A program made the translations under genes and the position numbers. A stretch of 64,000 nucleotides of DNA, taken from IMG/VR virus record IMGVR_UViG_3300035502_000737. One strand, written 5' to 3'. The notes under the pieces are model-generated. The model saw only the letters and a list, made by a program, of their open reading frames with translations, made no database searches and was not told the DNA's origin. Source of the stretch: a virus. Lineage: Duplodnaviria > Heunggongvirae > Uroviricota > Caudoviricetes. Below are positions 3,843-54,154 of this stretch, piece by piece (the first letter of the stretch is position 1; the number at the start of each line of letters is the position of its first letter).

Positions 3843-4766
3843 ATGTCAGCAAACGGAGTATACGGAACGAGTGTGGGAGCCACTCTCACGCCATCGAGCG
3901 ATGTGGAGGTTTACTACTCATACAGTCCGACGAGGAATTCGGATGACGTGAACAATGCCAAGTTCACTAAGATTGAGTCTTCCCTTCTCACGCAAGCCTA
4001 CATTGACGAGGACAGTGTGGATGAGAAATATGACAACGTGCTTGAGGGATTGTACAACCTCAAGCTTCCCTTGTCATACTTTAACCAAAAGGGATATTAC
4101 ACAGTTTATCTTAAGCCGAAGGAGTATATGGCGGTTCTGTCCGATGTGGGCGTTCTTTCCTCTTATCCAGACGTGAAGGGAATCGTGATTGACGCCGAGA
4201 GCACGGTGCTTGACAGTTCCATCGCAAAACTGCTGAAGGAGAACAATGCATTGGTGGGATACCGAATCATATACTATGACGAGAATTACAAGAGACAGCC
4301 GTACTATCGCATTGTGACGAGCAACAACAAATGCGAACCCGTGATTCAGAACTTGACGGACGTGAACCAAAAGGCGGTGAGGTACAGATACAATGAGAAC
4401 TCTTCCCTTGTGTTCTTGACTCTGTCTCCTTCAGTGGCAACCACTTACAAACCGAACGCGACACCTTATATCGGAGTTTCCATGCAGAAGGTTGGAATCG
4501 TGAATACCAAGTTCGAACCGACACTGATTGAAATCGAGATGGTTGACCATGACATCGAATCAATCAGCACGATGCTTGAGGGTTCTCAACTGAGGGATTT
4601 GGAGAACGGTTTGGTCACTACCTTCAACGGGGATAACGAGATTTACGCCCAACACGAGCACTATACGCTTAAGGATGAGTACAGTGGGAACCCCATCTAC
4701 GAGGTAAAGAAAAACAAGGAAGATTCAATCGACTTTACGCAGACGATTGAGGATAAGTTAGATTAG
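3843..4766 (+). CDS. hypothetical protein (307 aa)
   Basis: ORF in same co-directional block. Confidence 0.5.
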   Translation: MSANGVYGTSVGATLTPSSDVEVYYSYSPTRNSDDVNNAKFTKIESSLLTQAYIDEDSVDEKYDNVLEGLYNLKLPLSYFNQKGYYTVYLKPKEYMAVLSDVGVLSSYPDVKGIVIDAESTVLDSSIAKLLKENNALVGYRIIYYDENYKRQPYYRIVTSNNKCEPVIQNLTDVNQKAVRYRYNENSSLVFLTLSPSVATTYKPNATPYIGVSMQKVGIVNTKFEPTLIEIEMVDHDIESISTMLEGSQLRDLENGLVTTFNGDNEIYAQHEHYTLKDEYSGNPIYEVKKNKEDSIDFTQTIEDKLD

Positions 4767-11976: not shown

Positions 11977-11979
11977 TTG

Positions 11980-12356
11980 TAAAAATTTTTCGGCTATATA
12001 TTATATTATAATAATATTATATAATATTGCGTTAGCAAATAAACTAGCGTTAGCTATATTATTATATATAATATAAAATATTTTTTTTTATTTAAATTAA
12101 ACTACCGTAGGTTAGTTTAATAATATTAATTTTTAAATTTATTAATAATATATATTAATTATAATATTATATTAAATAATAAATTTAAAAATAAATTTTA
12201 ATTTAACTAACGTTAGTAAACTTAACAGACGTAACATTATATAAATATATTATATGATATAAAATAGGAATTTCAAGTTTTTCTCGCAATTTTTTTCATC
12301 ATAAAATTTGTTAAATCGAAAAAAGTTTTATATCTTTGCGAAAAGGAAGAGAGTAA
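11980..12356. other. extremely AT-rich (~90%) divergent intergenic region with short palindromes and direct repeats; candidate replication origin / divergent promoter hub
   Basis: gcgttagc x2 (12029-12054), palindromes ttaaacta..tagtttaa (12097-12120) and aactaacgttagt (12204-12216). Confidence 0.4.
12326..12340 (+). promoter_or_regulatory. -7 promoter element ttttatatctttgcg
   Basis: TAnnTTTG motif 17 nt upstream of ATG 12357. Confidence 0.45.
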
Positions 12357-12676: not shown

Positions 12677-15067
12677 ATGTTAACAATAGGAAACAAAGCG
12701 AAGATGAAGGTTCATTGGAAGGTTTCTCCCTATGATTTCTCCCAAGACAAGATGAAGACAATTGTTGGAAAGATGAGTGCCAAGTACTCCATTCCGAAGG
12801 ACAATGTGAAGGTAATTCCCGATTTTGTCTTGCTAAACGAGAAGGGCGAGAATGTCTCAGTTTCCCATGATGTCATCAACAACATTCAGAATCCCGAATT
12901 CCAACTTTCCTTGTTCAAGGAGTTCTTGGAGGAGAACAAGGTTCAAGAGTATGATTTCGATTATATAAAGAGGATTGACGCTGAAATCAACAGCAAAATC
13001 AACTACGAGGTATATGACAAGTATAGAAGATATGCCATCAAGTGGATAAGGTGGAATAACTTCTTGTCATACGGGGAGGGGAATTACTTCGATTTCTCGG
13101 CGTTGAAGGGATTGGTGCTGTTGAATGGGGAGCCAGCCAACCAATCGGGAAAAACGACATTTGCAATTGACCTTATCCATTTCTTACTGTTTGGAAGGAC
13201 GGAAAAGTCAGCCACGCAAGACAAGATATTCAACAAGCACCTTCCCGAAGCTACGGAAGTCGTGGTGGAAGGATGCATTTCAGTGGACGGAGAGGATTAC
13301 ATTATCAAGAGACGTCTTACGCGACCTTCCTTGCTGAAGAGGAATGCAAGGAGCAAGACCGTTCAGAAGGTGGAATATTATAAGATGGTAGGGGATTCCA
13401 TGGAAGAGCTTTCAGATTATGTGGAAGACAAGCAAGAGGAGAACTCCGCACAGACTAACAAAGCCATCAAGGAGGTGATTGGAAACGAGGAGGATTTTGA
13501 CATGATTATCTGTACCACCTCTTCCAACCTTGATGACTTGATTGAGAAGAAGGAAACGGAGAGGGGAAGGTTGCTCAGCCGTTGGATTGGGCTTCTTCCC
13601 ATCGAACAGAAGGACTCCATAGCAAGGGATATGTTCAACTCATCTGTCAGAAAGGCTTTCAAGGGCAATATTTACGATTCTCAGACCCTACAAGACGAGA
13701 TTAAGGGGTTGAACGTATCAACTACCGTCTACAAGGGAGAAATCGCGAAATACGCCTCGGAAATCGATAAATTGGATAGGGAATACACTTCCCTTGAGGA
13801 GGAGAAGAGCAATCTGCTCCTTGCCAAATCGAAAATTGACGAAGACGTGCTGAAGATTGACATCCATACCTTGCAGCAGAAGATTGAGACATGCAAGGAC
13901 AGAGGAATCAAGAAGGCGCAAGAAAAGGCTGAGTTGGAGGAGAGATTGAAACAGCTTTCGGACATTGACTTCTCCATTACGGAATACAATAAGTTGGTGG
14001 ACTTGAAATCAAGCATAACCGTTGAACTGAACAACTTGAGGCATCAGTTTTATGTAAACAAGGAGCAGATTTCATCCTTGAAGAACGGTGAGTACTGCCC
14101 CACATGCGGAAGGAAGTACGACAACATTGACAATTCCTCTAAGATAAAGGAGTTCGAGGACAAGAACAAGGAGCTTTCTATTAAGGGTACGGAACTATCA
14201 GAACAGTTGAAATTGATTTCAGCCAATGTGGAGAAAATGAGCTCTGATTCCGAAAAATACAAGGAAAAAAGCAAGTTGGAAGCCATGATTCCAAGCCTTT
14301 CTGTCACCATATCCAACTTGAGGAACGAGTATAGGGAACTGAGCCAAATGCTCACGGATTACAATTCAAACAAGGAAGCGATTGACCGAAACAACAAGCT
14401 TGACATCAGCATCAACAACATCAAGGTGAAGATTCAGAACAACCGAAACACCAAGGACACGGACTTGAACTTCATCAACACCAACAAGGCGAGAATCGAG
14501 GAGAATGAGAAGAACGTCAAGCTACGAGAAAATCTCATCGATGAAATCAAGAATGAACAGATGGTGGAGAAGAATTGGAAAATCTACCTTGACATGGTTG
14601 GGAAGAACGGCATTTCAAAGATGGTGCTTAGGAAGACACTTCCCATAATCAACGCTCAGATTGCAAGACTGCTCAACGGGGTATGTGACTTTGACGTGGT
14701 AATTGAGATAACGGAAAGGAACGACGTGATGTTCTACCTCATCAAGGACGGAGTGAAGTCCGACCTTACAAGCGGAAGCGGATTCGAAAAAACTGCTGCC
14801 GCGCTTGCCATCCGTTCAGTGCTCGGAAACATCTCCACGCTTCCGAAGAGCAATATCTTCGTGGTGGACGAAATCTTGGGAAGGGTGGCCAAGGAGAATT
14901 TCGAGAACATGAGGACACTGTATGAGAAGATTCTAGAGAACTTCGATGCGGTCATCCAAATCTCACACCTTGAGGAAATCAAGGATTGGCATTCCACCAT
15001 CATCACGGTGAAGAAGGAGAACGATGTCTCCAAAATAGTAGTTTCAAAGGAGACAATGCTACAATAA
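12677..15067 (+). CDS. SbcC/Rad50-like SMC-type ATPase
   Basis: Walker A NGEPANQSGKTT, long coiled coil, zinc-hook CPTCGRKY at mid-coil, Walker B/D-loop FVVDEILG near C-term. Confidence 0.7.
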   Translation: MLTIGNKAKMKVHWKVSPYDFSQDKMKTIVGKMSAKYSIPKDNVKVIPDFVLLNEKGENVSVSHDVINNIQNPEFQLSLFKEFLEENKVQEYDFDYIKRIDAEINSKINYEVYDKYRRYAIKWIRWNNFLSYGEGNYFDFSALKGLVLLNGEPANQSGKTTFAIDLIHFLLFGRTEKSATQDKIFNKHLPEATEVVVEGCISVDGEDYIIKRRLTRPSLLKRNARSKTVQKVEYYKMVGDSMEELSDYVEDKQEENSAQTNKAIKEVIGNEEDFDMIICTTSSNLDDLIEKKETERGRLLSRWIGLLPIEQKDSIARDMFNSSVRKAFKGNIYDSQTLQDEIKGLNVSTTVYKGEIAKYASEIDKLDREYTSLEEEKSNLLLAKSKIDEDVLKIDIHTLQQKIETCKDRGIKKAQEKAELEERLKQLSDIDFSITEYNKLVDLKSSITVELNNLRHQFYVNKEQISSLKNGEYCPTCGRKYDNIDNSSKIKEFEDKNKELSIKGTELSEQLKLISANVEKMSSDSEKYKEKSKLEAMIPSLSVTISNLRNEYRELSQMLTDYNSNKEAIDRNNKLDISINNIKVKIQNNRNTKDTDLNFINTNKARIEENEKNVKLRENLIDEIKNEQMVEKNWKIYLDMVGKNGISKMVLRKTLPIINAQIARLLNGVCDFDVVIEITERNDVMFYLIKDGVKSDLTSGSGFEKTAAALAIRSVLGNISTLPKSNIFVVDEILGRVAKENFENMRTLYEKILENFDAVIQISHLEEIKDWHSTIITVKKENDVSKIVVSKETMLQ

Positions 15068-15108
15068 AGAACAAAACATACATTACCTATTCCAACACGA
15101 CCATTATA

Positions 15109-15876
15109 ATGGAAAATTATAGTGAACAAGGCGGAAACAGAACCGCCTTACAGACATATTACGGAACGATTGTGAAATACAATCCGCTCCCAAAGAAGAG
15201 GGAATTGGAGCTTCTCAAGATTGCCAAGACCGACCAAAATGCCAAGGACTTGATTATTCTGTCCAACTTGAAGTTCGTCCTCAGTGTAGCCAAAAAGTAC
15301 AAGGATTACGGATACCCCATGGAAGACCTCATTTCCGAGGGTAATTACGGCTTGATTCTCGCCATCGACAAGTTCGACGAGAAGAAGAACGTAAGGTTTA
15401 TCACATTTGCCATGTATTGGATTCGATTCGCAATACAGAGATATATTTCAAAGGAGGGAATTGAACGTCGAAGAGAGGCCGAAAATCATCATTCTCCATC
15501 CTATCATGAATTGAATGGAGAAACAGACACGGAAGATGAGTATGAACGTTATGGCTACATTGACGAAGAGGAATACGATGACATTGAAATGGGAAATACC
15601 GATGAGGAAGATGACAACTTATTCGCCAAAATATCAGCCATTCAGAAGAAAATCTTGCTTTCCTTGATAGGAAAGCTGTCAGAAAAGGAACGCTCTGTGT
15701 TACTTTCTTACTTCGGTGTGGGAGAAAACGGAAAGGAGAACCTATTGGATATCGGCTCCAAACTCGGAATCTCTAAAGAAAGAGCGAGGCAGCTCAAGGA
15801 CCAAGCGCTTAGCAAGCTGAGAATAGAAGTGATGAAGAACAAACATTTTTCATCCTTCTTTGAACCGAAATATTAA
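15109..15876 (+). CDS. sigma-70 family RNA polymerase sigma factor (phage-encoded); start chosen at ATG 15109 rather than overlapping ORF-track start 14986
   Basis: region 2 LISEGNYGLILAIDKFDEKKNVRFITFAMYWIRFAIQRYI; region 4 HTH LLDIGSKLGISKERARQLKDQALSKLR. Confidence 0.75.
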   Translation: MENYSEQGGNRTALQTYYGTIVKYNPLPKKRELELLKIAKTDQNAKDLIILSNLKFVLSVAKKYKDYGYPMEDLISEGNYGLILAIDKFDEKKNVRFITFAMYWIRFAIQRYISKEGIERRREAENHHSPSYHELNGETDTEDEYERYGYIDEEEYDDIEMGNTDEEDDNLFAKISAIQKKILLSLIGKLSEKERSVLLSYFGVGENGKENLLDIGSKLGISKERARQLKDQALSKLRIEVMKNKHFSSFFEPKY

Positions 15877-22409: not shown

Positions 22410-24527
22410 ATGCCTAATACCGTTTACCTAAAGAAAAGCTCGGTGAAGGACAAGGCTCCTTCCGCAGCGGACTTGAATTATGGCGAATTGGCCATCAATT
22501 ACAACTCGGAGAGCACAGCCCTCTACTTCAAGGACAGTGACAACAAGGTCATCAAGACAAAACTCGGACCACTCGACACAGCCCTCGACGAGACTTCCAC
22601 CAACGGGGTGGAAAACCAAGCCATCTACGCTTCCATCTCGGAACTTGAGACGCAGCTCAACACCATCTCGCAGATGTACTCCATCTACGGATTCGCTCGC
22701 GTCAACGGAGACTCCTCACCCGACGGAACCATCTTCTTCGGAAAGGAGGAAAATCTCGACGGCATTAAGTCCAATATTCATATTGGACTAGTCAAAGACG
22801 GAAAATTGTACAAGCGTTGTGCCAATGGTCGTATAGACCTAGCTATCGACGGAACGGAACTCCTCATCGACGGTTCGGATGGTGATGTCATGATTTACAC
22901 ACAGCGTGACCTCTACCTCTTGAAGGCAACGACTTCCGTGGAAGGAATCGGAGAGGTCAATGTCATCGCCATCGGACTCGCACCGTTCACCATCTATGGT
23001 GTCAATGCCAAGAAGGTGGAGCCCTTTGCGTTCAACCCTCAGTACACCGTGAACGCAAAGCTCACTGAAACCAACAATACGAAGGGAGTCACGGACTACA
23101 GAAGCTGCGCACACTCTATCTACAACAAGAATGTGGCTGGACAGTACTCCGCTCCCAACGGTATGTTCGGAACCAAGTTCAAATCCAACGGAAATGGATA
23201 CTTCCATCAGTATATAAATTCCATGCAGTCCGTTTGGTATGCTCAGTGCAAGAACGAGGACTCTCAGACGAACTCGCCCTACATGGGACTGTACTATGAG
23301 TTCATGGAAATCGCCCTCGGACTGATGTTCATGGAATTGGGTTCTGTCTACCACCAAGGGCTCGATTCCTTCGGCGTGGGATGTACACAGACAAATATTG
23401 TAAACGCATCCACATTTTATGATGCTAAAATGAGCGCCAACAGCGGTTTGAAGATTTTCCGTCAAGACACTGATACGTTGGATTATTCGAACGCATATTG
23501 GGGACTGATGGCAAGTAATGCTCTGCAAACAATTGTCGGAACTTGCTATTATTCCTTCACGGAATGTTTGGAGCCTCAGCGCATCTTGAACGACATCGCG
23601 AAGGCTGGGCTCATTGACAAGATTTGGAAGGGTACGGAGGAGGATTCCGCGAATCAGTCCGTTATCTTCACTTACGCCACCGACGAGGAGACAAGCGAAG
23701 AGTACATGACCGTTGTCGAAACTGACACCGTGGATTTGAGTACGGGAGAAGGAATGGAGGACAACAAGAAGTACTACAAGGTAAGGAATGTGCCTAAATG
23801 TGACGGCATGGACAGCGGTTCCATGACCGCTGTAGTGAACATCTACGTAAGGTTGAACGTGGAAAAGGACATCACGTTTAACAATCTTGAATTCCATGCT
23901 TACTCAGCGGCCACTTATGACGAGGAAAGCGGCGATGAGCTTACCGCAGCGGCTGGAGACTACGCCATTTGGAAGTTCTCTCACCCCGTCTACCGTGGAA
24001 TTTCAATCCAAGACGGAATGTTCAAGCAGCTGCAAGGCTTTAACCACGTAAGAGCCAACCACGAGGGCACAATCCAAAGCACGTACATCTACGCGGAAAG
24101 TCCAGACGACATTCCAGCTTACACTGGAGCGTCTATCCAATACTTCGGCGATGAGGACGCAGAGCTCGAAATCGAGCGTGGGCTGAACCAAGGCGTTTCA
24201 TACACCGAAAGCGGATATAGTGGTTGGGCTAGCAAGGCAAACTATAATGCATCAATCTTTGCATATACGGCTACTAGCGGAGCGGCCATAACCTCACACG
24301 AGGCGGCGTATACTTGGCAAGCTGCAAGTTACGGAAATGGTGACAGTGGAACACTTAATTCCAACGGAACGCCTCGTGAGGGTCGTAAGTGTGTCAACGC
24401 CTCGGTGTTGGGCTGCTATGCGGTCAACAGCTATGCGTCTGCGCGTTCGCTGATTGCTTACCGTGCTGTGAGCTTCAGCCATGGCCACTACGCTGGGGCT
24501 TTTGCTATCAGCCATCTCAGCTTGTAA
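22410..24527 (+). CDS. DGR target protein (tail-fibre/receptor-binding-like) with C-terminal variable repeat
   Basis: last ~40 codons (24397-24508) are VR matching TR; C-terminal VR placement typical of C-type-lectin-fold DGR targets. Confidence 0.8.
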   Translation: MPNTVYLKKSSVKDKAPSAADLNYGELAINYNSESTALYFKDSDNKVIKTKLGPLDTALDETSTNGVENQAIYASISELETQLNTISQMYSIYGFARVNGDSSPDGTIFFGKEENLDGIKSNIHIGLVKDGKLYKRCANGRIDLAIDGTELLIDGSDGDVMIYTQRDLYLLKATTSVEGIGEVNVIAIGLAPFTIYGVNAKKVEPFAFNPQYTVNAKLTETNNTKGVTDYRSCAHSIYNKNVAGQYSAPNGMFGTKFKSNGNGYFHQYINSMQSVWYAQCKNEDSQTNSPYMGLYYEFMEIALGLMFMELGSVYHQGLDSFGVGCTQTNIVNASTFYDAKMSANSGLKIFRQDTDTLDYSNAYWGLMASNALQTIVGTCYYSFTECLEPQRILNDIAKAGLIDKIWKGTEEDSANQSVIFTYATDEETSEEYMTVVETDTVDLSTGEGMEDNKKYYKVRNVPKCDGMDSGSMTAVVNIYVRLNVEKDITFNNLEFHAYSAATYDEESGDELTAAAGDYAIWKFSHPVYRGISIQDGMFKQLQGFNHVRANHEGTIQSTYIYAESPDDIPAYTGASIQYFGDEDAELEIERGLNQGVSYTESGYSGWASKANYNASIFAYTATSGAAITSHEAAYTWQAASYGNGDSGTLNSNGTPREGRKCVNASVLGCYAVNSYASARSLIAYRAVSFSHGHYAGAFAISHLSL
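24397..24508 (+). repeat. DGR variable repeat (VR)
   Basis: 112-nt alignment to TR with 12 mismatches, every one at a TR adenine. Confidence 0.85.
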
Positions 24528-24590
24528 GCCCAGTGAAAACTGGCGGGGGCGGGGCCAGGAACGGCTCAGTGACTGGCCTTCCCCCCACCC
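24528..24590 (+). other. GC-rich element with two hairpins immediately 3' of VR (ccag..ctgg; ggccag..ctggcc), candidate DGR homing hairpin/terminator
   Basis: ggcgggggcggggcc island; inverted repeats 24529-24542 and 24553-24578 in otherwise AT-rich DNA. Confidence 0.5.
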
Positions 24591-24899
24591 TTTTTCACCA
24601 TGTCATGAAAAAAAAGTTTGTATTTTTGTTGTTTTTTTAAGTATTGTGATATTTATATAAAGTGACGATAAAAAAGTTGTTGAACTTAATGAGTTAGACG
24701 AGATTATTGTTTTTATCGTGTTTGAGAATGAATTTGTGTCTCTTTACGAGACGTAGGTGTTTGGGTTTATTAGTTCCTTTCGCTTGCTTGTGAAAGTAGG
24801 TGTTTGGAGTTGTTTCGGAGGGCTCCGCTCGTGAGCCCTCCATTTTTAGCGAAGTTATACCTTATTAATAAAATATACCATATTATATATATAGGAATT

Positions 24900-25760
24900 T
24901 GAAGAGATGATGAATGAAAAAAGGAATTTGAAGTATTTATGAAAAAAAAGTTGTGAGAAGTGTTGTCAATTTGAAAAGTTTTATATATCTTTGCATCGGC
25001 AAAGCAAAAGGAGTTGCAGGAGCCAGAAAGCGGACCAGTAGTTTGGTAAAAATTCCAGCTATGAGTAAAGTTAGAATGGTTATGTAACTTGTAAAGTTCT
25101 GAAAAACAGATATAAATAAAAAAGTTGAAAATATTTATTAAAATATTTGGTGATTAAGAAAACTTTATATATCTTTGCAATGTGAAACGGAGACAGTCAC
25201 AAATGAAGAGGATGATTCTTAAAGGGCTTTCCGATTGGGTTTGGATGTCTCTATGAACAAAGCGACCATTGTTTTATTGAACGAAAAAAAATAAAAAAAG
25301 TTTGAAAAAACTTTGCAAAAGATTTGGAAGTTTAAAAAACTTTGTATATCTTTGCAATGTGAAAGCAAAACAACAGAAGTTGATGATAGAGGTTCTTCTG
25401 AGCTGATTGAAAGGTTTCGGTTGTGAGTTTGAACGAAGAGTTTTTTGAATTTTTGCTTGCGGAAAAAAGATTGAAAAAAAGTTTGCAAATTATTTGGAAG
25501 TTTGAAAAACTTTTTATATCTTTGCAATGTGAAAGAAATGTTCACGAAGGTTGATTGATGATTGTACGGGACGGATGAGGTGAACGTTTCCTTGGTTATG
25601 GTTTCTACAACGATTTGAACTATATATAATTAAATAAATCGGCTTGTTCGTGATGAATCGGTACGATTCGGAGAGAAAGGAATGTAACGGTATTGATAAA
25701 CACCTTTTATATGAATCACGGCTTTTTGTTTTGTCGTTGCATTCCTTCTCTTTTTTTAGA
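24900..25760 (+). repeat. four tandem ~170-bp units each carrying the phage consensus promoter (aaaactttatatatctttgcaatgtgaaa) and an upstream gtttgaaaaaactttgcaaa element, no ORFs
   Basis: promoter cores at 24978-24994, 25161-25185, 25338-25362, 25508-25532; downstream 100-150 nt unique, non-coding. Confidence 0.6.
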
Positions 25761-26556
25761 CCGCAAGTTCTTGATTTATAAAGTTTATAATCATTTATTG
25801 AAAATAATTTTATAATTTGAGAGAAAAGTTCGATAAACATTGCTTTTTTTTATATTAAAACTATATTTATAAATATGAAAACGTAAAGGAATTTGAACGG
25901 ATATGGAAAGAGCCATAAACATATATCCTTTGTGTGCGTCGGTGCAACGCTAACATTCGCATGCAGTTCTGAATGGCTTGCATTCTTAAGGCAAAAAAAA
26001 TAACACTCTTTCGCTTAAGTTTTAAGAATGTGTGATATTTATAAATAAAGAAGAATGCGTCATACTTTTAACGACGCTATAGCCTAATTCTTCTTTCTTT
26101 ATAACATCAGTCATTTCTGCCGAGATATATGATGTTTGGGCATCTTTTAGAAGTTGCCGTTCTAGGGCGGAGAGTTTTGAAACTCCTAAATTTTTCTCTC
26201 CGCCTTCTTTTTGCCGAGTGCAAGTGAGAGGGGTTGAAGTGGGCTGCGCACACAGCTTGGTACTCCGCTGAAGACTTGCGGTTTGATGTGGGCGTTGTTC
26301 CATTTCATCCTTTTCTCATTCACTCGGTGTTTTTTTAAGTTTGGGAGACATTAAGTTAATGCTTAAATTAAGATTAACACAATGAAATTTTTAGAAACCA
26401 AAAATATCATTGACCGAAAGGTTGATTTAACGGCATCAACGGATGGTGGTGACATCATTCGAGGATTGAGTTCATCGAGTTACGCCTTGGCTGCATCACT
26501 AGAGTTTAAATCAGAAGGTGGTGAAGGTACGGTGAACGATAACGTTGGGGTAGAGC

Positions 26557-26668
26557 ACGCCTCGGTGTTGGGCTGCAATGCGAACAACAGCAATGCGTCT
26601 GCGCGTTCGCTGAATGCTAACCATGCTGTGAGCAACAGCAATGACAACTACGCTGGGGCTTTTGCTAC
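26557..26668 (+). repeat. DGR template repeat (TR)
   Basis: matches VR; AAC/AAT-rich (N codons) as expected for TR. Confidence 0.85.
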
Positions 26669-26732
26669 TAAACAATGTGACTCTAGGAACCTACCCGACG
26701 TGCTCATCAAGAGCGAATATGACAGAGAAGCA

Positions 26733-27881
26733 ATGGATGTGCTTGATGCAGTCAAGCTCATGGAATTGCCACAGTGCGATTATGGCGTCCCCTTCATGGA
26801 CAATGAGGGTTCCGACGTGGCAGAAAGCAATGTGAATTTATCACTGCTCCAAGAGCTTCATGTGGCGAATAGCAAAAGGAAGCTCAAGAACATGAGACGT
26901 TTCCTCGTCAGTAGGGAGATTGTTGAAATGGGCGTGGAGCGATGCCTTTCTAAGGCGTCAGATTCTCCGCAGAAGCGTGAGGCTTTGAAGCATAGGGAGG
27001 ATATTGTTAACCGAATCATTTATGAGTTGGAGACCAATACCTACCATGTGGAGAAGCCCACTTCTCGGACAATCAAGCGGAGGCATAAGGATGGAAAGGA
27101 CAGAAATGCCGACATTTTTTCGATATATGACCGTTGCGTTCAGAATGTGGTTCTCATTGTCATAAAGGAGAAGTTCACGAATATGATTACGCGGAACATA
27201 TACAGTGGGATTGAGGGCCGTTCTGTTTACAGCAACAACAAGACTTACTGCATGCTTTATCAGCTTCGAAAGTTTTGCAGTTCTCATCCGAATGCTTACG
27301 TAATGATGACAGATATACATCACTTTTATGAGACCGCGAGAAGCGAGGTTGTCTTGAAAATTCTTTCGAAGACCATCAAGGACCGTTTCCTCATGGGATT
27401 GTTGAGTGACATATTGATGTCATTGCCACACTTGCCGATTGGGGGCACTTTGTCGCAGCTCCTATCGGCGGTTATGCTGAACGAATGCGACAGAGAAATA
27501 TTAATTCGTTTCAAGCCAAAGATTTATTGCGGTTTCGGAGACAATAGAATCTACGGTGACGACGACAAGCAGAAGTTAATTGAAATCAGAAATTTCCAAC
27601 GTGACTTTTATCATAACAAGTTGGGGATTGAGATGAAGAAAGACTACAAGCTTGCCAAGGTGAAGGACGGTTTCAGTTTTTGCCGAACGATTTACAAGGA
27701 ATCCTATGTGAAGATTCGTGGCGAATTGAAGAGAAGAACCATTAGGGCTGCATTGAAAGGTTGGACCTATTATGCGTCTTATCGAGGCTTCTTAATGAAA
27801 ACGGACAGCAAGCACTTGAAAAAAGAAATCGAAAAAAGACTTCGTTGGCTTAAGAAACGAATAAAAATCGTTAATGCTTAA
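26733..27881 (+). CDS. DGR reverse transcriptase (ORF-track start 26382 includes TR; likely true start ATG 26733)
   Basis: RT motifs: RRHKDGKDR (motif 1/2), DIHHFYET (A), IGGTLSQLLSAVML (DGR-type IGxxxSQ motif B), RIYGDD (C, YxDD). Confidence 0.8.
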   Translation: MDVLDAVKLMELPQCDYGVPFMDNEGSDVAESNVNLSLLQELHVANSKRKLKNMRRFLVSREIVEMGVERCLSKASDSPQKREALKHREDIVNRIIYELETNTYHVEKPTSRTIKRRHKDGKDRNADIFSIYDRCVQNVVLIVIKEKFTNMITRNIYSGIEGRSVYSNNKTYCMLYQLRKFCSSHPNAYVMMTDIHHFYETARSEVVLKILSKTIKDRFLMGLLSDILMSLPHLPIGGTLSQLLSAVMLNECDREILIRFKPKIYCGFGDNRIYGDDDKQKLIEIRNFQRDFYHNKLGIEMKKDYKLAKVKDGFSFCRTIYKESYVKIRGELKRRTIRAALKGWTYYASYRGFLMKTDSKHLKKEIEKRLRWLKKRIKIVNA

Positions 27882-27892
27882 ATTTTTAATTA

Positions 27893-28378
27893 TTGTTAAT
27901 TATGGCCGAATCAAATAAAGTAGACATAAATGTCTCATGGACGGCAGAAGAGCCAAAATCCGAATACAGCGATGTGATAAAGGACTCAATCAAGTCGATT
28001 AAGAAGGGTGATGTTCTCGCTGGCGTCAAGATGAAACTTGACGAACTTGTTGATAAGACAATTATTGTTAAAGGTTTTATCAAAACCGCTTCATTGAAAG
28101 ATGACTGCGATTATTACTACCGTTTTAGCGGTTTTGCAGCAATCATCGAGAATGGAGAGAAGAAAATCATCGCGTTTAATACTCACAACGCAAGTAAGAA
28201 CATCACATTATTCTTCGACAGAGTTTTGGGCGGTGTACTTAAGATGCCCCCTAAATTGGTCGTAAGAAAAAGAGGAAACACTTTCTTTTTTGACGGTTAT
28301 GACGATTATGACCGTTTGAGAATTGAGATGGAAATCGGCACTTGCGAGGGTGTATTTGAGGACTCTGACTTCGCTTAG
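27893..28378 (+). CDS. hypothetical protein (161 aa)
   Basis: ORF immediately after RT. Confidence 0.4.
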   Translation: MLIMAESNKVDINVSWTAEEPKSEYSDVIKDSIKSIKKGDVLAGVKMKLDELVDKTIIVKGFIKTASLKDDCDYYYRFSGFAAIIENGEKKIIAFNTHNASKNITLFFDRVLGGVLKMPPKLVVRKRGNTFFFDGYDDYDRLRIEMEIGTCEGVFEDSDFA

Positions 28379-29894: not shown

Positions 29895-31514
29895 ATGTTA
29901 ATACAGAGTAAGTATACAAAGGCATTCAAGTCGAATGATATGACCCGTTTGAAATATAACGAGTTGTATGACTTCGCTGTGCTTATTCGTAACCATAAAA
30001 ACACCGTTTCTAAATACGTCAATAACAATCTTCTACATTTTCTTGAATATAGTAAATTTTCCTTCTTGACGGAAATGAGAGAATTGTATAAAGGTTGCAT
30101 CTCAAGTTCATTTGACGCTCAGTTATATACTGACGTACTCATATCCTACCAAAACAAATTCGAGGCTGTTCAAAGGAGATTAAAATTTGAAGTCGTCACC
30201 TATAAAGGTTATGATGTTTATAAGCATAAGACAAAGAAACATAACAAGGGAGATTTCAAAAAGATAACCACTGAAAGGAAACAGACGTTGCTTTCTAATT
30301 GTCTAACTTATCTTGCAAGATATGGAAACGATAATACGATTGAATATATCAACAAGCAACTTCCATCTTGTGACGAGAAGAAGAAATCGTACTACTTAAA
30401 CATCCTTAATTGCTGTCGTAAGTATGGGTTTGAACGCTTATACAGACTCGCTCTCTCTAAAAGAGAAAGGATTGTCAAACAATATAGCGAACATCCAATA
30501 GAGTTTAAGTCTTTGACCTTTCGTGGTAGAAGTAGAAAAACAAGAATTATTGACTTTAACCACAAATTTGGTTCGAAAATTAACGCATTCATAAGCTTGT
30601 CTGGATTTGATAGAAAGTCATTTTACATACCCATCAAGTTCAATAAGAATTGGCATGGGAATATGAGAGATTACTATAAGGATATCCCAAGCTATGAATA
30701 CACATTAACATTCAACGAAAAGGAACATCAAGTTAATATACTTTTATGTAAAGATGGCGAAAGATACCTACCGCAAGCTGGCAGTAATACCATAGGCATT
30801 GATGTGAATTGCAAGCACAACTTGTTCAGCTTGTCAAACCGAACGACCTATGACTACAACCGAAAGCTCGTCAATGATTTCTGTAAGCTGTCTACCGAAA
30901 TAGATACATTCAAAACAAACAAGAGTTATTCGGTTGGCAAACGCAAACAAAGGAAACTTGATACGCTGAAAAACAAAGTGGTTAAGTCCGAGCAACAGCT
31001 TATTGCTCTTATGTGCAAAGAGTTAAAAATTCAAGGATACAATCATATCGTTATGGAGGATTTGGATAATGGTTTTGGTAAATGTTATGTTAAAGATGGA
31101 GAAAACTCATGCATCAACTACAACCGCAAGGTTAAGTTTCTTGGTTTGAGTAGTTTAAAGCAAGAGGTCGAGCACATCGCGAGGAAATATGACATTGCAG
31201 TGTCAACCGTGCATGCGAGTTATACCTCCAAGATGTGTCCAATTTGTGGTTGTATTGAAGATGGGAACAGACCGAACCAAGAGACGTTTGAATGTGTTGA
31301 GTGTGGTCATAAAGATAGTGCAGACTTTAATGCTGCAATTAATATAAGGAATAGAGTGGACGTAACCGTGTTGCGTCTGCTCTTAAAACAACTTGACAAT
31401 GGTGCTTATGAGCCCAAGAAACTTCACAGAGAAAAGGTGAAAGAGGTACTATTGTCGTTTCGAAGAAACTTGCAAGAAATTGCAAGGCGTGAATGTAGCC
31501 AAAAAGTAGTATGA
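29895..31514 (+). CDS. TnpB/Cas12-like RuvC nuclease (539 aa), OMEGA-type RNA-guided endonuclease candidate
   Basis: RuvC-I IGIDVN, RuvC-II IVMEDLDN, zinc finger CPICGC...CVECGH, RuvC-III DSADFNAAINIRNR. Confidence 0.75.
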   Translation: MLIQSKYTKAFKSNDMTRLKYNELYDFAVLIRNHKNTVSKYVNNNLLHFLEYSKFSFLTEMRELYKGCISSSFDAQLYTDVLISYQNKFEAVQRRLKFEVVTYKGYDVYKHKTKKHNKGDFKKITTERKQTLLSNCLTYLARYGNDNTIEYINKQLPSCDEKKKSYYLNILNCCRKYGFERLYRLALSKRERIVKQYSEHPIEFKSLTFRGRSRKTRIIDFNHKFGSKINAFISLSGFDRKSFYIPIKFNKNWHGNMRDYYKDIPSYEYTLTFNEKEHQVNILLCKDGERYLPQAGSNTIGIDVNCKHNLFSLSNRTTYDYNRKLVNDFCKLSTEIDTFKTNKSYSVGKRKQRKLDTLKNKVVKSEQQLIALMCKELKIQGYNHIVMEDLDNGFGKCYVKDGENSCINYNRKVKFLGLSSLKQEVEHIARKYDIAVSTVHASYTSKMCPICGCIEDGNRPNQETFECVECGHKDSADFNAAINIRNRVDVTVLRLLLKQLDNGAYEPKKLHREKVKEVLLSFRRNLQEIARRECSQKVV

Positions 31515-41127: not shown

Positions 41128-42018
41128 ATGATTGTCAATCTCAAAACTGGTCACTCTGATTATTTCGAACGCACTGATACGTTCATCAGATACCAAGAAG
41201 AAATCCGACGTTATCGCCTTTTGTCAGACTCCGACACCATGGAGTGTTTCCAAAAGATTAGGCACGGGACCAAAGAGGAAAAGGAATCCGCAAAGAGGAA
41301 GCTTGTGAACGCAAACCAACGCTTCATCCTTGCCATGGCCAAAAAGTACGGCACGAACGAAAACTACCTCGACCTTGTGGAAGAGGGGAACATCGGTCTG
41401 CTTGAGGCCATCGAGAAGTACGACACGGAAGACGGGTCAAAATTCCTTTCCTTTGCGGTATGGTACGTGAGGAGGGCGATGAACCACTTTAGCTCACGGT
41501 ACGGAAGTGTGGTCAGAAAGACAAACATCTCGAAGACATGGCACTACATATCGAGGGCTACGAACAAGTTCCTACAGAAGGAACAGCGTCAGCCGACATT
41601 GGACGAGCTGATTGAAGTCCTTAACAATGACTACAACGTCGACATTAAGGACGCGAACGATGTGATAGAGACGAAAATGATTTCCATCGACCAAACCATT
41701 GACGGGTTCGAGGAAGGAGCGAGAGAGACTTCCGACGACTACGCATTACTTTCAGAGGCGTCTTCTTTCGACAACCTTTACAACGAGGAAATCGAAAGAG
41801 AGTTCCAAGGCATGTTGGTCGGGAAGGTTTTGGAGACACTCTCCAAGAGGGAGAGGGAAATCATCACATTGTACTTTGGAATAGGATATGACAGAGCTTA
41901 TGAGCTCGGTGAAATATCAGAAAAGCTTGGACTGACAAAGGAACGAGTCCGACAAATTAGAAACACGGTTGTATCAAAACTAAAGGAAGAGTGCGTGGAA
42001 GCACTCAAGGAAACTTAA
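41128..42018 (+). CDS. second sigma-70 family sigma factor
   Basis: region 2 LVEEGNIGLLEAIEKYDTEDGSKFLSFAVWYVRRAM; region 4 LGEISEKLGLTKERVRQIRNTVVSKLK. Confidence 0.75.
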   Translation: MIVNLKTGHSDYFERTDTFIRYQEEIRRYRLLSDSDTMECFQKIRHGTKEEKESAKRKLVNANQRFILAMAKKYGTNENYLDLVEEGNIGLLEAIEKYDTEDGSKFLSFAVWYVRRAMNHFSSRYGSVVRKTNISKTWHYISRATNKFLQKEQRQPTLDELIEVLNNDYNVDIKDANDVIETKMISIDQTIDGFEEGARETSDDYALLSEASSFDNLYNEEIEREFQGMLVGKVLETLSKREREIITLYFGIGYDRAYELGEISEKLGLTKERVRQIRNTVVSKLKEECVEALKET

Positions 42019-49912: not shown

Positions 49913-50023
49913 GAAATAACTTTATATCCATTGATATTTTTCTCATTTCCTAGATATTTATAGCAGATGATTTGAGACAAAGAAAAAAAGTTTGAAAAAA
50001 GTTTCATAAACATTTGGTTCTTC

Positions 50024-50052
50024 TGAAAACTTTATATATCTTTGCAATGTGA
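50024..50052 (+). promoter_or_regulatory. phage consensus promoter driving tRNA array
   Basis: aaaactttatatatctttgcaatgtgaga 30 nt upstream of first tRNA. Confidence 0.5.
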
Positions 50053-50080
50053 GACAGAAACAGTGATGATGAAAATAGTT

Positions 50081-50152
50081 AGTCCCTTGGTGTAACGGTT
50101 AGCACAGCAGATTTTGATTCTGCTAGTAAAAGTTCGAATCTTTTAGGAACTA
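50081..50152 (+). tRNA. tRNA-Gln (anticodon TTG)
   Basis: cloverleaf: AC arm gcaga-ttTTGat-tctgc, T-arm aaaag-ttcgaat-ctttt. Confidence 0.7.
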
Positions 50153-50327: not shown

Positions 50328-50400
50328 GCGAAGAGTAGCACAATTGGTAGTGCAGCGACAATCCTGTCGTAAAATGTGGGTTCGATTCCCACCTCTCGCT
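50328..50400 (+). pseudogene. degenerate tRNA-like element (tRNA pseudogene?)
   Basis: good D-arm (gcac-aattggta-gtgc) and T-arm (gtggg-ttcgatt-cccac) but anticodon arm cannot form 5-bp stem/7-nt loop; extra nt in 5' acceptor strand. Confidence 0.35.
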
Positions 50401-50465
50401 CAATGGAAGAAAAAAAATAACAAGAATTTTTATCAAAACTAATCACATTCCATATACTTATTGAT

Positions 50466-52912: not shown

Positions 52913-54154
52913 ATGATTTTCAGAGCCATAAAAATACGGTTATACCCGAATCGAGAGCAGCAAGTGTCGATGAACAAGACGCTTGGCTGTTACCGCTTTG
53001 TATATAACCAAATGTTGGCTCGGAAAATCAACGCCTACGAGGAAGATAAAACAAACTTGGGACTGTGCGAACTGTCGAAATTCTTTCACGGCGAACTTCT
53101 CAAACAAGAGGATTGCGTATGGCTGAACGAGCAGAATACAAAGGTCATGAATCAAGCTATTAGGCAGATGCTCGTTGCATTCAAGAACTTCTTTGAAGGA
53201 CGAGGATTTCCTCACTTCAAACGGAAGTCTGACGCGCAGACTGCACTCTTCCCGTATGGCGCAATTTCGAAAAAGAATACCTTCACAAAGAAAACAATAT
53301 CCCTTACAACCGCGTTGAAAGACGTTAAGTTCCGTTGCTCGAACAAGATGTTCGAGCGCTTGCAACGATACAAGGACCACATCAAGAGTGCTACATTGTC
53401 GAAAACCAAGACACGTAAGTACGAATTGTCTGTCCTCATTGAAATGGAAGAATCGGAACTTGCTCGCTATCAGCACACGGGAAAGAGTGTTGGCATTGAC
53501 CTCGGCGTCAAGGATTTAGTTGTCACTTCTGACGGCAAGCGCTTTGAGAACAAGCACTTCAGCAAGGCAGAGAAGCGCAAGGTGGCTAAGCTCTCGAAGC
53601 AGTTGTCCAAGAAGCAAAAAGGTTCTAACAACCGCGAGAAGGCACGCTTGAGGCTTGCCAAGGTCTACGAGAAGATTGCCAACAGACGCAAGGATTACCT
53701 TCATCAGATTGTGAACGCCTTGCTTCGTGAGTACGACACGGTGTTCATGGAGAACTTGAACGTAAGTGGCATGCTTAAGAATCACAAGTTGGCTTATGCC
53801 ATCCAAGAGCTTGGGTTGTCTTTGTTCAAGGCCTTGCTAAAAGACAAGGCTGCGCTCAACGGGAAAGCCGTTGTCGAGATTGGACGTTTCTTCCCGTCGA
53901 GCCAACTGTGCAGTCAATGCGGTTACAGATATCGTAACCTACGTCTTTCAGAGCGTCAGTGGCACTGTCCACAGTGTGACAGTGACCTTGACCGTGATGT
54001 CAATGCAGCGAGGAATATCTTGCGTGAAGGTGAAAGAAATGTAGGCGCCCGTAGCGCCGAATTAACGCTTGTGGACTACCCTCCCATGGATGAACGTTCT
54101 GCCTTGCAGAATCTAAAAAGTGGTGGTAGGATGAAGCAAGAAGCGAAAGACTAA
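52913..54154 (+). CDS. tnpB: IS200/IS605-family TnpB (OrfB) RNA-guided nuclease
   Basis: N-term MIFRAIKIRLYPNREQ, RuvC motifs, C-terminal zinc finger CSQCGYRY...CPQCDSDLDRDVNAARNI. Confidence 0.8.
   Translation: MIFRAIKIRLYPNREQQVSMNKTLGCYRFVYNQMLARKINAYEEDKTNLGLCELSKFFHGELLKQEDCVWLNEQNTKVMNQAIRQMLVAFKNFFEGRGFPHFKRKSDAQTALFPYGAISKKNTFTKKTISLTTALKDVKFRCSNKMFERLQRYKDHIKSATLSKTKTRKYELSVLIEMEESELARYQHTGKSVGIDLGVKDLVVTSDGKRFENKHFSKAEKRKVAKLSKQLSKKQKGSNNREKARLRLAKVYEKIANRRKDYLHQIVNALLREYDTVFMENLNVSGMLKNHKLAYAIQELGLSLFKALLKDKAALNGKAVVEIGRFFPSSQLCSQCGYRYRNLRLSERQWHCPQCDSDLDRDVNAARNILREGERNVGARSAELTLVDYPPMDERSALQNLKSGGRMKQEAKD

Follow-up and report, generated by a model that had tools for sequence, protein, structure and literature searches.

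Four tandem copies of a phage promoter, presumably its strongest, were found with no gene behind them between the variable repeat (VR) and the template repeat (TR) of a diversity-generating retroelement (DGR) in the window, as we call the whole stretch of 64,000 nucleotides of Caudoviricetes DNA, from an uncultivated Bacteroidota phage, that was analysed (IMG/VR record IMGVR_UViG_3300035502_000737). The array lies inside a non-coding insertion of ~1.7-1.85 kb, here called the island, that splits the DGR and is present in this lineage only. We give an even chance to the reading that the four units are a tandemly duplicated bank of strong promoters, from which nested, sequence-tolerant non-coding transcripts would run to one terminator. 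Such a bank is unusual, yet it has a precedent, and it is not a DGR part.

The DGR and its insertion

The DGR is marked by two features:

24397..24507, + strand: DGR variable repeat VR, at the 3' end of a 705-aa target ORF (22410-24527)
26382..27881, + strand: DGR reverse transcriptase (RT) ORF, with TR (26557-26667) embedded in its N-terminal part

VR and TR are a 111-nt repeat with 89% identity, in which 12 out of 12 mismatches were located at TR adenines. When the window was compared with contig L007, 11 of 13,500 positions differed, and all 11 were VR sites opposite TR adenines. Additionally, in L144, a diverged variant of the same phage, a non-adenine change in TR was mirrored in its own VR. 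Judging from these sequence variants the DGR is active with the island in place, and VR varies between samples at TR-adenine sites only.

The VR-TR gap is 2050 nt here in comparison to ~330-550 nt in 22 related DGRs, and neither promoter motifs nor similarity to the island were found in the gaps of these relatives. In relatives the target gene and the RT are separated by ~150 nt that contain no promoter. As the gaps of the 22 relatives are short and promoter-free, the array is a lineage-specific insertion and not a DGR component. This agrees with a preliminary description of the array, which had stated that the arrangement is not standard for a DGR; the array was lacking in 22/22 related DGRs. 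A normal ORF at this place in homologous phages would have spoken against that description, and the relatives show neither such an ORF nor the long spacer. It had also pointed out that the spacer contains no avd-like ORF, which is true, yet the whole RT family lacks one too. The ORF after the RT was rejected as an Avd candidate, as it had no Pfam or PDB sequence match and shares its homology with the extended C-terminus found in longer RT homologues.

A blastn search with the spacer as query gave no match among 50,697 phage records, and a metagenome scan for the array gave 0 matches. When viral contigs were scanned by pattern for pairs of tandem promoters and for the GTAGGTGTTTGG repeat, only coding repeats or chance matches came up. 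With blastn against all fetched loci the island showed promoter-level similarity only; similarly, within the rest of the window it matched promoters only, and VR and TR matched each other only. The VR-TR spacer can thus absorb an insertion of ~1.7-1.85 kb that is dense in predicted promoters and terminators while the DGR keeps diversifying its target. Since the DGR tolerates the insertion, the content of a VR-TR spacer should not be presumed to be DGR machinery.

Promoter cassettes

The cassettes and the related sites were located as follows:

24893..24946, + strand: two AGGAATTTGAA copies upstream of unit 1, a possible regulator site
24932..25007, + strand: cassette P1, the most diverged copy; -7 box TATCTTTG at 24986-24993; 0.027 substitutions per site compared to L144
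25116..25191, + strand: cassette P2; ATTTGG, 20 nt, TATCTTTG, then ATGTGAAA at the predicted start; core window identical in L144
25293..25368, + strand: cassette P3; 11-nt phased A-tract upstream element (AAAAAAGTTTG repeated); 0.013 substitutions per site compared to L144
25463..25538, + strand: cassette P4, based on the repeat search, the promoter geometry and the L144 comparison
49975..50064, + strand: promoter of the tRNA operon; the cassette is the same down to its A-tract upstream element, with leader motif TGATGAT; 78-82% identical to units 2-4

Based on the repeat search, P1 to P4 are four direct copies of one 76-nt repeat family, with start-to-start distances of 184, 177 and 170 nt and 64-87% identity to the reference copy. 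The exact 12-mer TATATCTTTGCA occurs once per cassette (at 24984, 25168, 25345 and 25515), which confirms the earlier claim of four tandem units with an exact consensus promoter. Six exact copies of TATATCTTTGCA were found in the window, and 14 with at most one mismatch, compared to 0.54 expected from shuffles; four of the six exact copies fall within one 540-nt stretch, the array. The promoter consensus of Bacteroidota consists of TAnnTTTG at -7 and TTTG near -33 (PMC7366714). TATATCTTTGCA fits this -7 box, and the box TATCTTTG was found in all four units. P2, P3 and P4 share the geometry of ATTTGG, 20 nt and TATCTTTG, with the TTTG motif near -33, whereas the -33 element of P1 is reduced to TTG. 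At the expected start site ATGTGAAA is conserved, which is common to other promoters in the window. All four promoters face rightward, toward TR-RT.

An upstream element had been ascribed to each unit. This holds for AAAAAAGTTTG-type variants of a phased A-tract motif, which are present throughout, but the element quoted, gtttgaaaaaactttgcaaa, is exact in unit 3 only (25300-25319). By their sequence, the array units are copies of the phage consensus promoter and contain a promoter only. As two proteins of the sigma-70 family are encoded by the phage, it is not certain which sigma factor recognizes the array promoters. A third AGGAATTTGAA copy is present at 25887 and the near-identical AGGAATTTCAA at 12266. 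A CRISPR array or solitary repeat unit, with 25-50-nt repeats and spacers of similar length, was rejected, since the repeats here are 76 nt long with a period of 170-184 nt and the repeat is a promoter.

The tRNA-operon promoter, behind which tRNA-Gln begins at 50081, has the same cassette as the array, and exact copies of the upstream AAAAAAGTTTG are confined to it and the island. The homology to the tRNA-operon promoter and its leader covers the cassette and ~35 nt at the beginning of the transcribed part. The TGATGAT motif of this leader is common to units 2-4, and the unit 2 copy is missing from L144. The unit 2 spacer has a weak similarity to the leader and tRNA-Gln (z 3.0). Such an extended and highly conserved cassette with a phased A-tract element could serve as a strong Bacteroidota promoter.

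Transcribed spacers and a probable shared terminator

Behind the promoters the array consists of four spacers and a hairpin:

25008..25115, + strand: unit 1 transcribed spacer; ORFs of at most 8 aa; possible conserved long hairpin
25192..25292, + strand: unit 2 transcribed spacer; C-poor, unstructured, neutral drift
25369..25462, + strand: unit 3 transcribed spacer, based on folding, pairwise similarity and the L144 comparison
25539..25667, + strand: unit 4 transcribed spacer, more variable than any other segment, with indels and 0.16 substitutions per site compared to L144
25668..25757, + strand: long hairpin followed by U7 (T1); -27.1 kcal/mol, z -4.2; 0.045 substitutions per site compared to L144

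That the downstream sequence is non-coding was borne out, as the longest ATG-initiated ORF from a promoter to the next cassette was 17 aa when the sequence was read by eye. Longer ORFs on both strands start upstream of the promoters or give AT-rich junk translations. Minus-strand ORFs of 93-108 aa were rejected as genes because of their junk-like translations, the 93-aa ORF having no credible tblastn match in phages, and a 42-aa plus-strand ORF was rejected as it overlaps the terminator hairpin. The downstream sequences had also been called unique, which is largely correct, with a pairwise identity of 50-58% compared to ~50% in shuffles; however, a weak residual likeness was detected between neighbours only (units 2 and 3, z 3.4; units 3 and 4, z 2.8). 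Enrichment of k-mers within the spacers was modest (TGAAC, GATGA). The predicted spacer transcripts are rich in G and contain little C (9-14%).

The proposal that the units encode small RNAs was not supported for units 2-4. Their single-sequence fold z-scores were -0.4, +0.4 and +0.4, no consensus structure was found across the four spacers, and their L144 substitutions, at a neutral rate, were not structure-preserving. In the folding predictions only unit 1 gave a weak hint of a conserved hairpin (fold z -3.4), and none of its 10 substitutions compared to L144 breaks a predicted pair (P 0.018). It has no terminator of its own. No Rfam family was detected in the island, whether at gathering score or with E values of up to 10. 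ARAGORN found no tRNA or tmRNA in the island, and its relaxed matches occurred at the shuffled-sequence rate. For antisense targets within the window, the longest complements were no better than in shuffles.

No hairpin with a U-tract was found between units 1-3, and the sole one of the array is T1. As units 1-3 are without a terminator, nested transcripts are expected, with predicted lengths of ~760, 580, 400 and 230 nt. These would be untranslated and C-poor, and would all end at 25668-25757. Two stem changes in T1 that were traced in L144 retain the pairing in the alignment read by eye, and T1 is probably the shared intrinsic terminator for all four promoters. The sites of initiation, the strength of the promoters and the end of transcription at 25757 are all predicted from the sequence.

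Other parts of the island

The island has a GC content of 0.31-0.34, compared to 0.42 for the window, of which it is the largest non-coding region. Its promoter-like sites number six or more, and its predicted terminators four or five. Outside the array the following parts were recognized:

24542..24600, + strand: GC-rich hairpin and U-tract just past VR; -33.3 kcal/mol, z -3.1; an analogous hairpin is present in relatives
24645..24848, + strand: second-class promoter-like motif TGTGATATTTATA, then a structured non-coding 'RNA A'; fold z -3.9
25758..25900, no strand assigned: AT-rich stretch, of which 25774-25893 (GC 0.15) ranks second in the window for AT-richness over 120 nt
25887..26030, + strand: degenerate fifth promoter-like site, TATATCCTTTGTG near 25935, based on sequence and the L144 alignment
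26031..26160, + strand: second TGTGATATTTATA copy with a long AT hairpin, whose arms are at 26039-26056 and 26087-26104; a paralogue of the first part of 'RNA A'
26164..26212, + strand: terminator-like hairpin T2, GGGCGGAGAG...CTCTCCGCC then UUCUUUUU; -18.4 kcal/mol, z -3.0; 0.038 substitutions per site compared to L144
26213..26337, + strand: T3, a 116-nt long hairpin then a U-tract, 45 nt before the RT start codon; -52.8 kcal/mol, z -5.1

The hairpin past VR is the usual DGR target-side hairpin and may act as a transcription terminator as well. 'RNA A' ends with an intrinsic terminator (24817-24848) in which 0/32 positions were substituted compared to L144. The AT-rich stretch varies in sequence and length in L144 and by inspection its AT-richness appears to be kept, the 88-nt block 25943-26030 has zero substitutions, and the substitutions within 26031..26160 keep the predicted structure (P 0.007). 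T1, T2 and T3, which separate promoter 4 from the RT start, are all kept in L144; T1 and T2 change slower than neutral, whereas T3 does not. The second-class promoter-like motif, searched as GATATTTATA, was found 6 times on the + strand compared to 0.1 expected. A mobile element with terminal repeats was rejected, as the 13-nt TGTGATATTTATA copies (24645 and 26031) belong to a motif seen 6 times in the window and are not target-site duplications.

Conservation of the array

L144 retains all four units. The substitutions compared to L144 amounted to 10/303 in the cassettes (0.033 per site), 43/422 in the spacers (0.10) and 34/371 at fourfold-degenerate sites (0.09). The cassettes differed from the spacers (Fisher, p 4e-4) and the spacers did not differ from the fourfold sites (p 0.72), in a comparison with one diverged variant at ~9% neutral divergence, which leaves room for mild constraint on the spacers. 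The core windows of P2, P3 and P4 had 0/144 changes. The substitution pattern indicates purifying selection on the promoters and the terminator and not on the RNA between them. The array is thereby a clean natural case of conserved promoters and terminator with a drifting transcribed sequence, which suggests that the function lies in transcription itself or in a sequence-tolerant RNA.

Possible functions of the array

In the preferred reading, a promoter bank, tandem duplication would have given rise to the four cassettes, each with a putative primary-sigma -33 element (TTTG), a -7 element (TAnnTTTG) and a helically phased upstream A-tract, and the island would be a 'moron'-like insert without a gene that was inserted into the VR-TR spacer. 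As the promoters and the terminator are under selection and the spacers are not, the function would be in high-rate initiation or in a sequence-tolerant RNA rather than in four specific small RNAs. It is not obvious what the phage would gain from an unconstrained RNA output, and the bank may thus have its real target elsewhere, such as in TR-RT read-through, DNA topology or replication. The topological variant of the promoter bank, which we regard as a long shot, is that the bank acts via transcription itself: firing away from VR and stopping at a fixed terminator would leave the DNA behind in an underwound state, which would extend over the VR-side hairpin located 400-950 nt upstream. If a hairpin or cruciform were then extruded at the DGR target, or its strands opened, retrohoming could be boosted, and the same logic could extend to nearby replication initiation. 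If true, this would be the first known accessory DNA element tuning DGR activity via local topology.

It had been suggested earlier that stacked promoters feed the TR-RT transcript. For this, polymerase from P1-P4 would have to pass the hairpins, perhaps by antitermination, and would supply abundant template RNA as well as mRNA for the RT, in place of the joint transcription with the target gene on which compact relatives apparently rely. The orientation of all four promoters is right for it. The insertion also cuts the RT off from upstream transcription, given the ~150-nt promoter-free distance in relatives, only a weak TAAGTTTG site precedes the RT start (26338), and the TGATGAT motif could be an antitermination signal. 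However, three stable U-tract hairpins ending at 25757, 26212 and 26337 intervene, all present in L144 and two of them slower than neutral, the promoter-like motif at 26031 is better placed for the RT, and L144 has lost the TGATGAT of unit 2, so that we consider this role doubtful. A transcription-activated replication origin, with tandem promoters beside an AT-rich unwinding element, is by analogy similarly improbable. It would fit selection on promoters without selection on RNA sequence, the location in the largest non-coding stretch of the window, the stretch of GC 0.15 that directly follows the array and by inspection again looks AT-rich in L144, and the G-rich, C-poor composition of the predicted transcripts, which favours RNA-DNA hybrids. 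The conserved terminator between the promoters and the AT-rich stretch argues against it, as transcripts should not enter that stretch; moreover, the cumulative GC skew climbs steadily through the region with no inflection, related phages do without the island, and the divergent intergenic region 11977-12356 is far more AT-rich (GC 0.06 over 120 nt) and a better candidate.

Four independent sibling genes, each promoter giving its own processed functional RNA of ~100 nt with a different target, would be in line with a consensus promoter per unit, with a cassette of the stable-RNA (tRNA operon) type and with the hairpin signal of unit 1. We find this unlikely, as units 2-4 fold no better than shuffles, share no consensus structure and drift at the neutral rate without preserving structure; units 1-3 have no terminator, Rfam gave no match, and tRNA-like and antisense matches within the window were at chance level. 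The homology to the tRNA-operon promoter and leader could also reflect evolutionary debris, meaning decayed duplicates of a 'promoter + leader + tRNA' module with no present function. A unit length of 170-184 nt is about that of a cassette, leader and one tRNA, the unit 2 spacer weakly resembles the leader and tRNA-Gln, and the spacers drift neutrally. Such decay is hard to reconcile with the purifying selection on the cassettes and the unchanged P2-P4 cores, with the conserved shared terminator and with exactly four units in both diverged lineages, and has little probability in our view. Finally, UG27 arrays of Bacteroidota phages consist of sequence-diverse units of ~150 nt that are copied into short cDNAs; the units share a hairpin and conserved motifs and come with an RT of 380-450 aa and two accessory proteins (bioRxiv 10.64898/2026.09.22.753630). 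With this precedent, a Bacteroidota host and sequence-diverse units of ~175 nt adjoining an RT gene, the array might by analogy be an RT-linked array of non-coding template RNAs. This is very improbable, since the unit motif AUCN7UANAG is missing from both strands of the island, tblastn with one probe protein (the candidate second RT of L005, 423 aa) found no second RT in the window, the shared hairpin architecture is absent, the conserved part of the units is an untranscribed promoter and not RNA, and the spacers evolve neutrally.

Comparison with known systems

Tandem promoters are known from stable-RNA and early operons, such as rrn P1/P2 of E. coli with UP elements, the four promoters of rrnD in Streptomyces coelicolor, and A1-A2-A3 of phage T7. 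Like these banks, the array has several same-direction promoters of the host-polymerase type, presumably strong, with 100-200-nt spacing, non-coding intervals and A/T-rich upstream activating elements, and the same cassette heads the tRNA operon of this phage. Those banks feed a defined operon, whereas in the array the conserved feature that comes next is a terminator, with neither a gene nor a recognisable RNA gene behind it, and the four copies are located within a DGR spacer. The precedent for duplication of the same promoter type comes from the Bacteroidota phage contigs L124, L125 and L140, in which the whole cassette with the same consensus (ATTTGG...TATATCTTTGCAATGTGA) is duplicated head to tail with a 103-nt period and a non-coding interval. 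However, these have two copies only, directly before a small protein-coding gene with its own terminator.

The primary origin of T7 consists of two tandem promoters and an AT-rich region, and oriF and oriG of T4 of a promoter and an unwinding element. Similarly, a very AT-rich segment comes after the array promoters and the sequence of the RNA is under no requirement, but unlike in these origins a conserved terminator lies between promoters and segment, and there is no GC-skew or other replication signal. The UG27 arrays resemble this one in having sequence-diverse units of ~150-170 nt beside an RT gene in Bacteroidota phages, and differ in that the conserved element here is a promoter and that the UG27 unit motif and shared hairpin were not found. 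Phage 'morons' are inserted promoter-gene-terminator modules between conserved genes. Unlike them, the island has no protein-coding cargo and consists of promoters, terminators and non-coding sequence only; like them, it is lineage-specific, separates two genes that are neighbours in relatives, brings promoters and terminators of its own, and is lower in GC.

The DGR and the insertion in it

The diversity-generating retroelement (DGR) around the four promoter units is genuine: a 111-nt variable repeat (VR, 24397-24507) is at the end of a 705-aa ORF, the template repeat (TR, 26557-26667) lies in the N-terminal part of the reverse transcriptase (RT) ORF (26382-27881), and 12 of the 12 mismatches between TR and VR are at TR adenines. 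Apart from its own cluster (at least 90% identity), homologues were at most 52% identical to the RT of the window. In 22 of 22 related DGR loci the RT ORF with its embedded TR came within about 150-180 nt of the target gene, and their VR-TR gap was about 330-550 nt, compared to 2050 nt in the window. Neither the promoter motif nor similarity to the non-coding island that holds the array was found in the gap of these 22 loci. An avd gene was absent from the VR-TR gap of all related DGRs examined; what this RT family has is an extra domain, either as a C-terminal part of the RT or as an ORF immediately 3' of it (27893-28378 in the window). The preliminary description was correct that the spacer holds no avd-like ORF; this absence is therefore a trait of the family, and the 1854-nt spacer (24528-26381) is an insertion. 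Judged from these comparisons, the array is part of a lineage-specific insertion and not a DGR component, in agreement with the earlier remark that it is not standard in DGRs.

Direct evidence was obtained that the DGR works with the insertion in place and is active in nature. Between the window and L007, another metagenome copy of the phage, 11 of 13,500 positions differed, each of them a VR site opposite a TR adenine. In L144, a diverged variant of this phage, a non-adenine TR change was mirrored in the VR.

Throughout the RT family avd is lacking and the TR is inside the RT ORF; the peptide that the TR encodes (VLGCNANNxNASAR...NSNDNYAG) shows conservation across 17 aligned homologues. The domain of about 150 aa is a C-terminal fusion in long RT homologues (600-670 aa) and a separate downstream ORF in the window. 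A related phage (L005, 73-1344) carries a second RVT_1 reverse transcriptase (423 aa) and a 153-aa ORF directly 5' of its DGR target gene, for which no counterpart was found in the window. The closest viral-contig relative, the 279-kb contig L096, has two VR copies (2029-2144 and 4524-4639) for one TR, and therefore two DGR targets.

The four promoter units

Within 24900-25760 a block of about 76 nt was found in four direct copies, starting at 24932, 25116, 25293 and 25463 (spacing 184, 177 and 170 nt; 64-87% identity to the reference copy), each ending with the exact 12-mer TATATCTTTGCA. With at most one mismatch this 12-mer occurs 14 times in the 64-kb window against 0.54 expected, and four of its six exact copies are inside the array. 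All promoter sites have a long consensus in common, namely an A-tract element, ATTTGG, about 20 nt, TATATCTTTGC(A/G) and ATGTGAAA, which fits the Bacteroidota primary-sigma promoter with TAnnTTTG at -7 and TTTG near -33 (PMC7366714). The promoter sites of the window are, except for two, on the + strand and usually 20-60 nt 5' of an ORF or tRNA.

Reading the sequence by eye, we found no ATG-initiated ORF longer than 17 aa between an array promoter and the next cassette; the longer ORFs around the array, on either strand, begin 5' of the promoters or give AT-rich junk translations. The four promoter units without a gene were therefore confirmed. The upstream element previously assigned to every unit was exact in unit 3 only, with variants in the other units. 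The downstream sequence, described as unique, was near random between units (50-58% identity, where shuffles gave about 50%), and only neighbouring units retained a weak similarity.

The best array matches elsewhere in the window were other promoters. The closest (49975-50064; 78-82% identity over about 85 nt) heads the tRNA array and is as similar to units 2-4 as these are among themselves. The phased A-tract motif AAAAAAGTTTG (11-nt period by TRF) had exact copies in the island and at the tRNA promoter only; with one-mismatch copies counted there were 11 matches, 6 in the island and 2 at the tRNA promoter. TGATGAT, about 25-35 nt into the transcript, is likewise common to units 2-4 and the tRNA leader; past it the segments of the units are near random to one another. 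This pattern fits a tandem duplication of promoter and leader, after which all but the promoter decayed.

Selection on promoters and terminators

L144 is the contig of the single non-identical full-length member of the RT 90% cluster, and its island (1916 nt vs 1854 nt) has the four units in unchanged order. No island homologue was found in the phage, viral-contig and metagenome collections searched.

Substitutions between the window and L144
Promoter cassettes P1-P4: 10 of 303, 0.033 per site
Transcribed spacers u1-u4: 43 of 422, 0.10 per site
Fourfold-degenerate sites of five flanking ORFs: 34 of 371, 0.092 per site
Core windows of P2-P4: 0 of 144, 0 per site
Terminator A (24817-24848): 0 of 32, 0 per site
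Terminator T1 (25668-25757): 0.045 per site
Terminator T2 (26164-26212): 0.038 per site

Cassettes differed from spacers (p 4e-4), whereas spacers did not differ from fourfold sites (p 0.72). Two L144 changes traced in the T1 stem both kept the pairing. In a permutation test of whether L144 substitutions avoid breaking predicted pairs, none of the 10 substitutions in unit 1 broke a pair (P 0.018), and units 2-4 gave P 0.25, 0.69 and 0.83. The fold z-scores of units 2-4 were near zero, and we found no consensus structure across the four spacers, no Rfam or tRNA match in the island and no antisense target above chance in the window. Together these results show, for a single variant whose neutral divergence is about 9%, that selection retains promoters and terminators and leaves the intervening RNA free to drift, with unit 1 as a possible exception.

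Other elements of the island and the genome

Features of the island, with all window copies of its second motif core
24645 and 26031, + strand: second motif TGTGATATTTATA, two copies in the island
3710, 15883, 24648, 26034, 49953 and 52431, + strand: GATATTTATA, mostly intergenic
24655-24852: 'RNA A', fold z -3.9
26090-26345: structured region, fold z -4.5
Ends at about 24600, 24848, 25757, 26212 and 26337, + strand: five hairpins with U-tracts, all folding far better than shuffles
25774-25893: AT-rich 120 nt, second most AT-rich in the window

The window has six copies of GATATTTATA, the core of TGTGATATTTATA, against 0.1 expected. All are on the + strand, most are 5' of an ORF, of tRNAs or of structured non-coding DNA, and the motif may be a second promoter class. 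Each island copy of TGTGATATTTATA precedes a long AT hairpin together with a structured segment that has terminators at its end. Two proteins of the sigma-70 family (14986-15876 and 41128-42018; regions 2 and 4, Pfam E-values 1e-11 to 1e-15) are phage-encoded and could account for there being two promoter classes.

An 88-nt block (25943-26030) has zero substitutions compared to L144, and 3' of it lies a hairpin region (26040-26337) with structure-preserving substitutions (P 0.007); a 116-nt hairpin just 5' of the RT start folds at -52.8 kcal/mol (z -5.1). The block and hairpins (25943-26337) could form a regulatory leader for TR-RT. AGGAATTTGAA is present in three exact copies (24893, 24922 and 25887), with a near-copy AGGAATTTCAA at 12266, each in AT-rich non-coding DNA 48-95 nt 5' of a promoter-like site, and may be a regulator binding site.

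Elsewhere, TnpB/Cas12f-like ORFs with a TNB domain were found at 29895-31514 and 52913-54154, the second also with OrfB_IS605 and HTH domains; in L144 the place of the first is taken by two ORFs of 296 aa, which suggests recent mobility. The large-phage features of the region 33132-55011 are ClpP protease, DnaJ, tyrosyl-tRNA synthetase, TelA and an array of 12-13 tRNA genes interrupted by ORFs; one ARAGORN tRNA call (50328-50401) has an odd anticodon loop.

Interpretation of the array

The best-supported reading is that tandem duplication of a strong promoter of the stable-RNA type gave rise to a promoter bank, which is unrelated to DGR mechanics and is carried by a moron-like insertion with no gene. 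Units 1-3 have no terminator, and the four promoters are therefore predicted to give nested transcripts ending together at 25757. Such transcripts (C content 9-14%) would be untranslated and C-poor, and would halt at a single conserved terminator.

The preliminary description had proposed four small RNAs or stacked promoters feeding TR-RT. Four sibling small RNAs are improbable, given the lack of consensus structure, the near-zero z-scores of units 2-4 and the neutral rate of the spacers; a hint of them came from unit 1 only. Read-through into TR-RT probably does not occur, as three retained terminator-like hairpins (T1, T2 and T3, the last at 26213-26337) separate promoter 4 from the RT start. 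Decaying relics are argued against by the conservation of the promoters.

The AT-rich neighbour would suit a transcription-activated origin; however, a terminator intervenes, there is no skew signal, and 11977-12356 is a better candidate replication origin. This divergent intergenic region is extremely AT-rich (GC 0.06 over 12087-12206, the window minimum); it holds a consensus promoter at 12331 and AT repeats that are palindromic. Another improbable reading would be an array of RT-templated RNAs, as in the UG27 arrays described recently: the UG27 motif was not found in the island, the units share no consensus structure, and a search with one candidate second RT (L005, 423 aa) found no match in the window.

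As a promoter bank, whose function may lie in transcription itself, the array is odd in that nothing recognisable is driven by its promoters. Tandem promoters are a classical arrangement in rRNA operons and at the early genes of T7. Promoter duplication of a similar kind, with the same consensus, was found in three other Bacteroidota phage contigs (L124, L125 and L140), where it lies 5' of a small protein gene.
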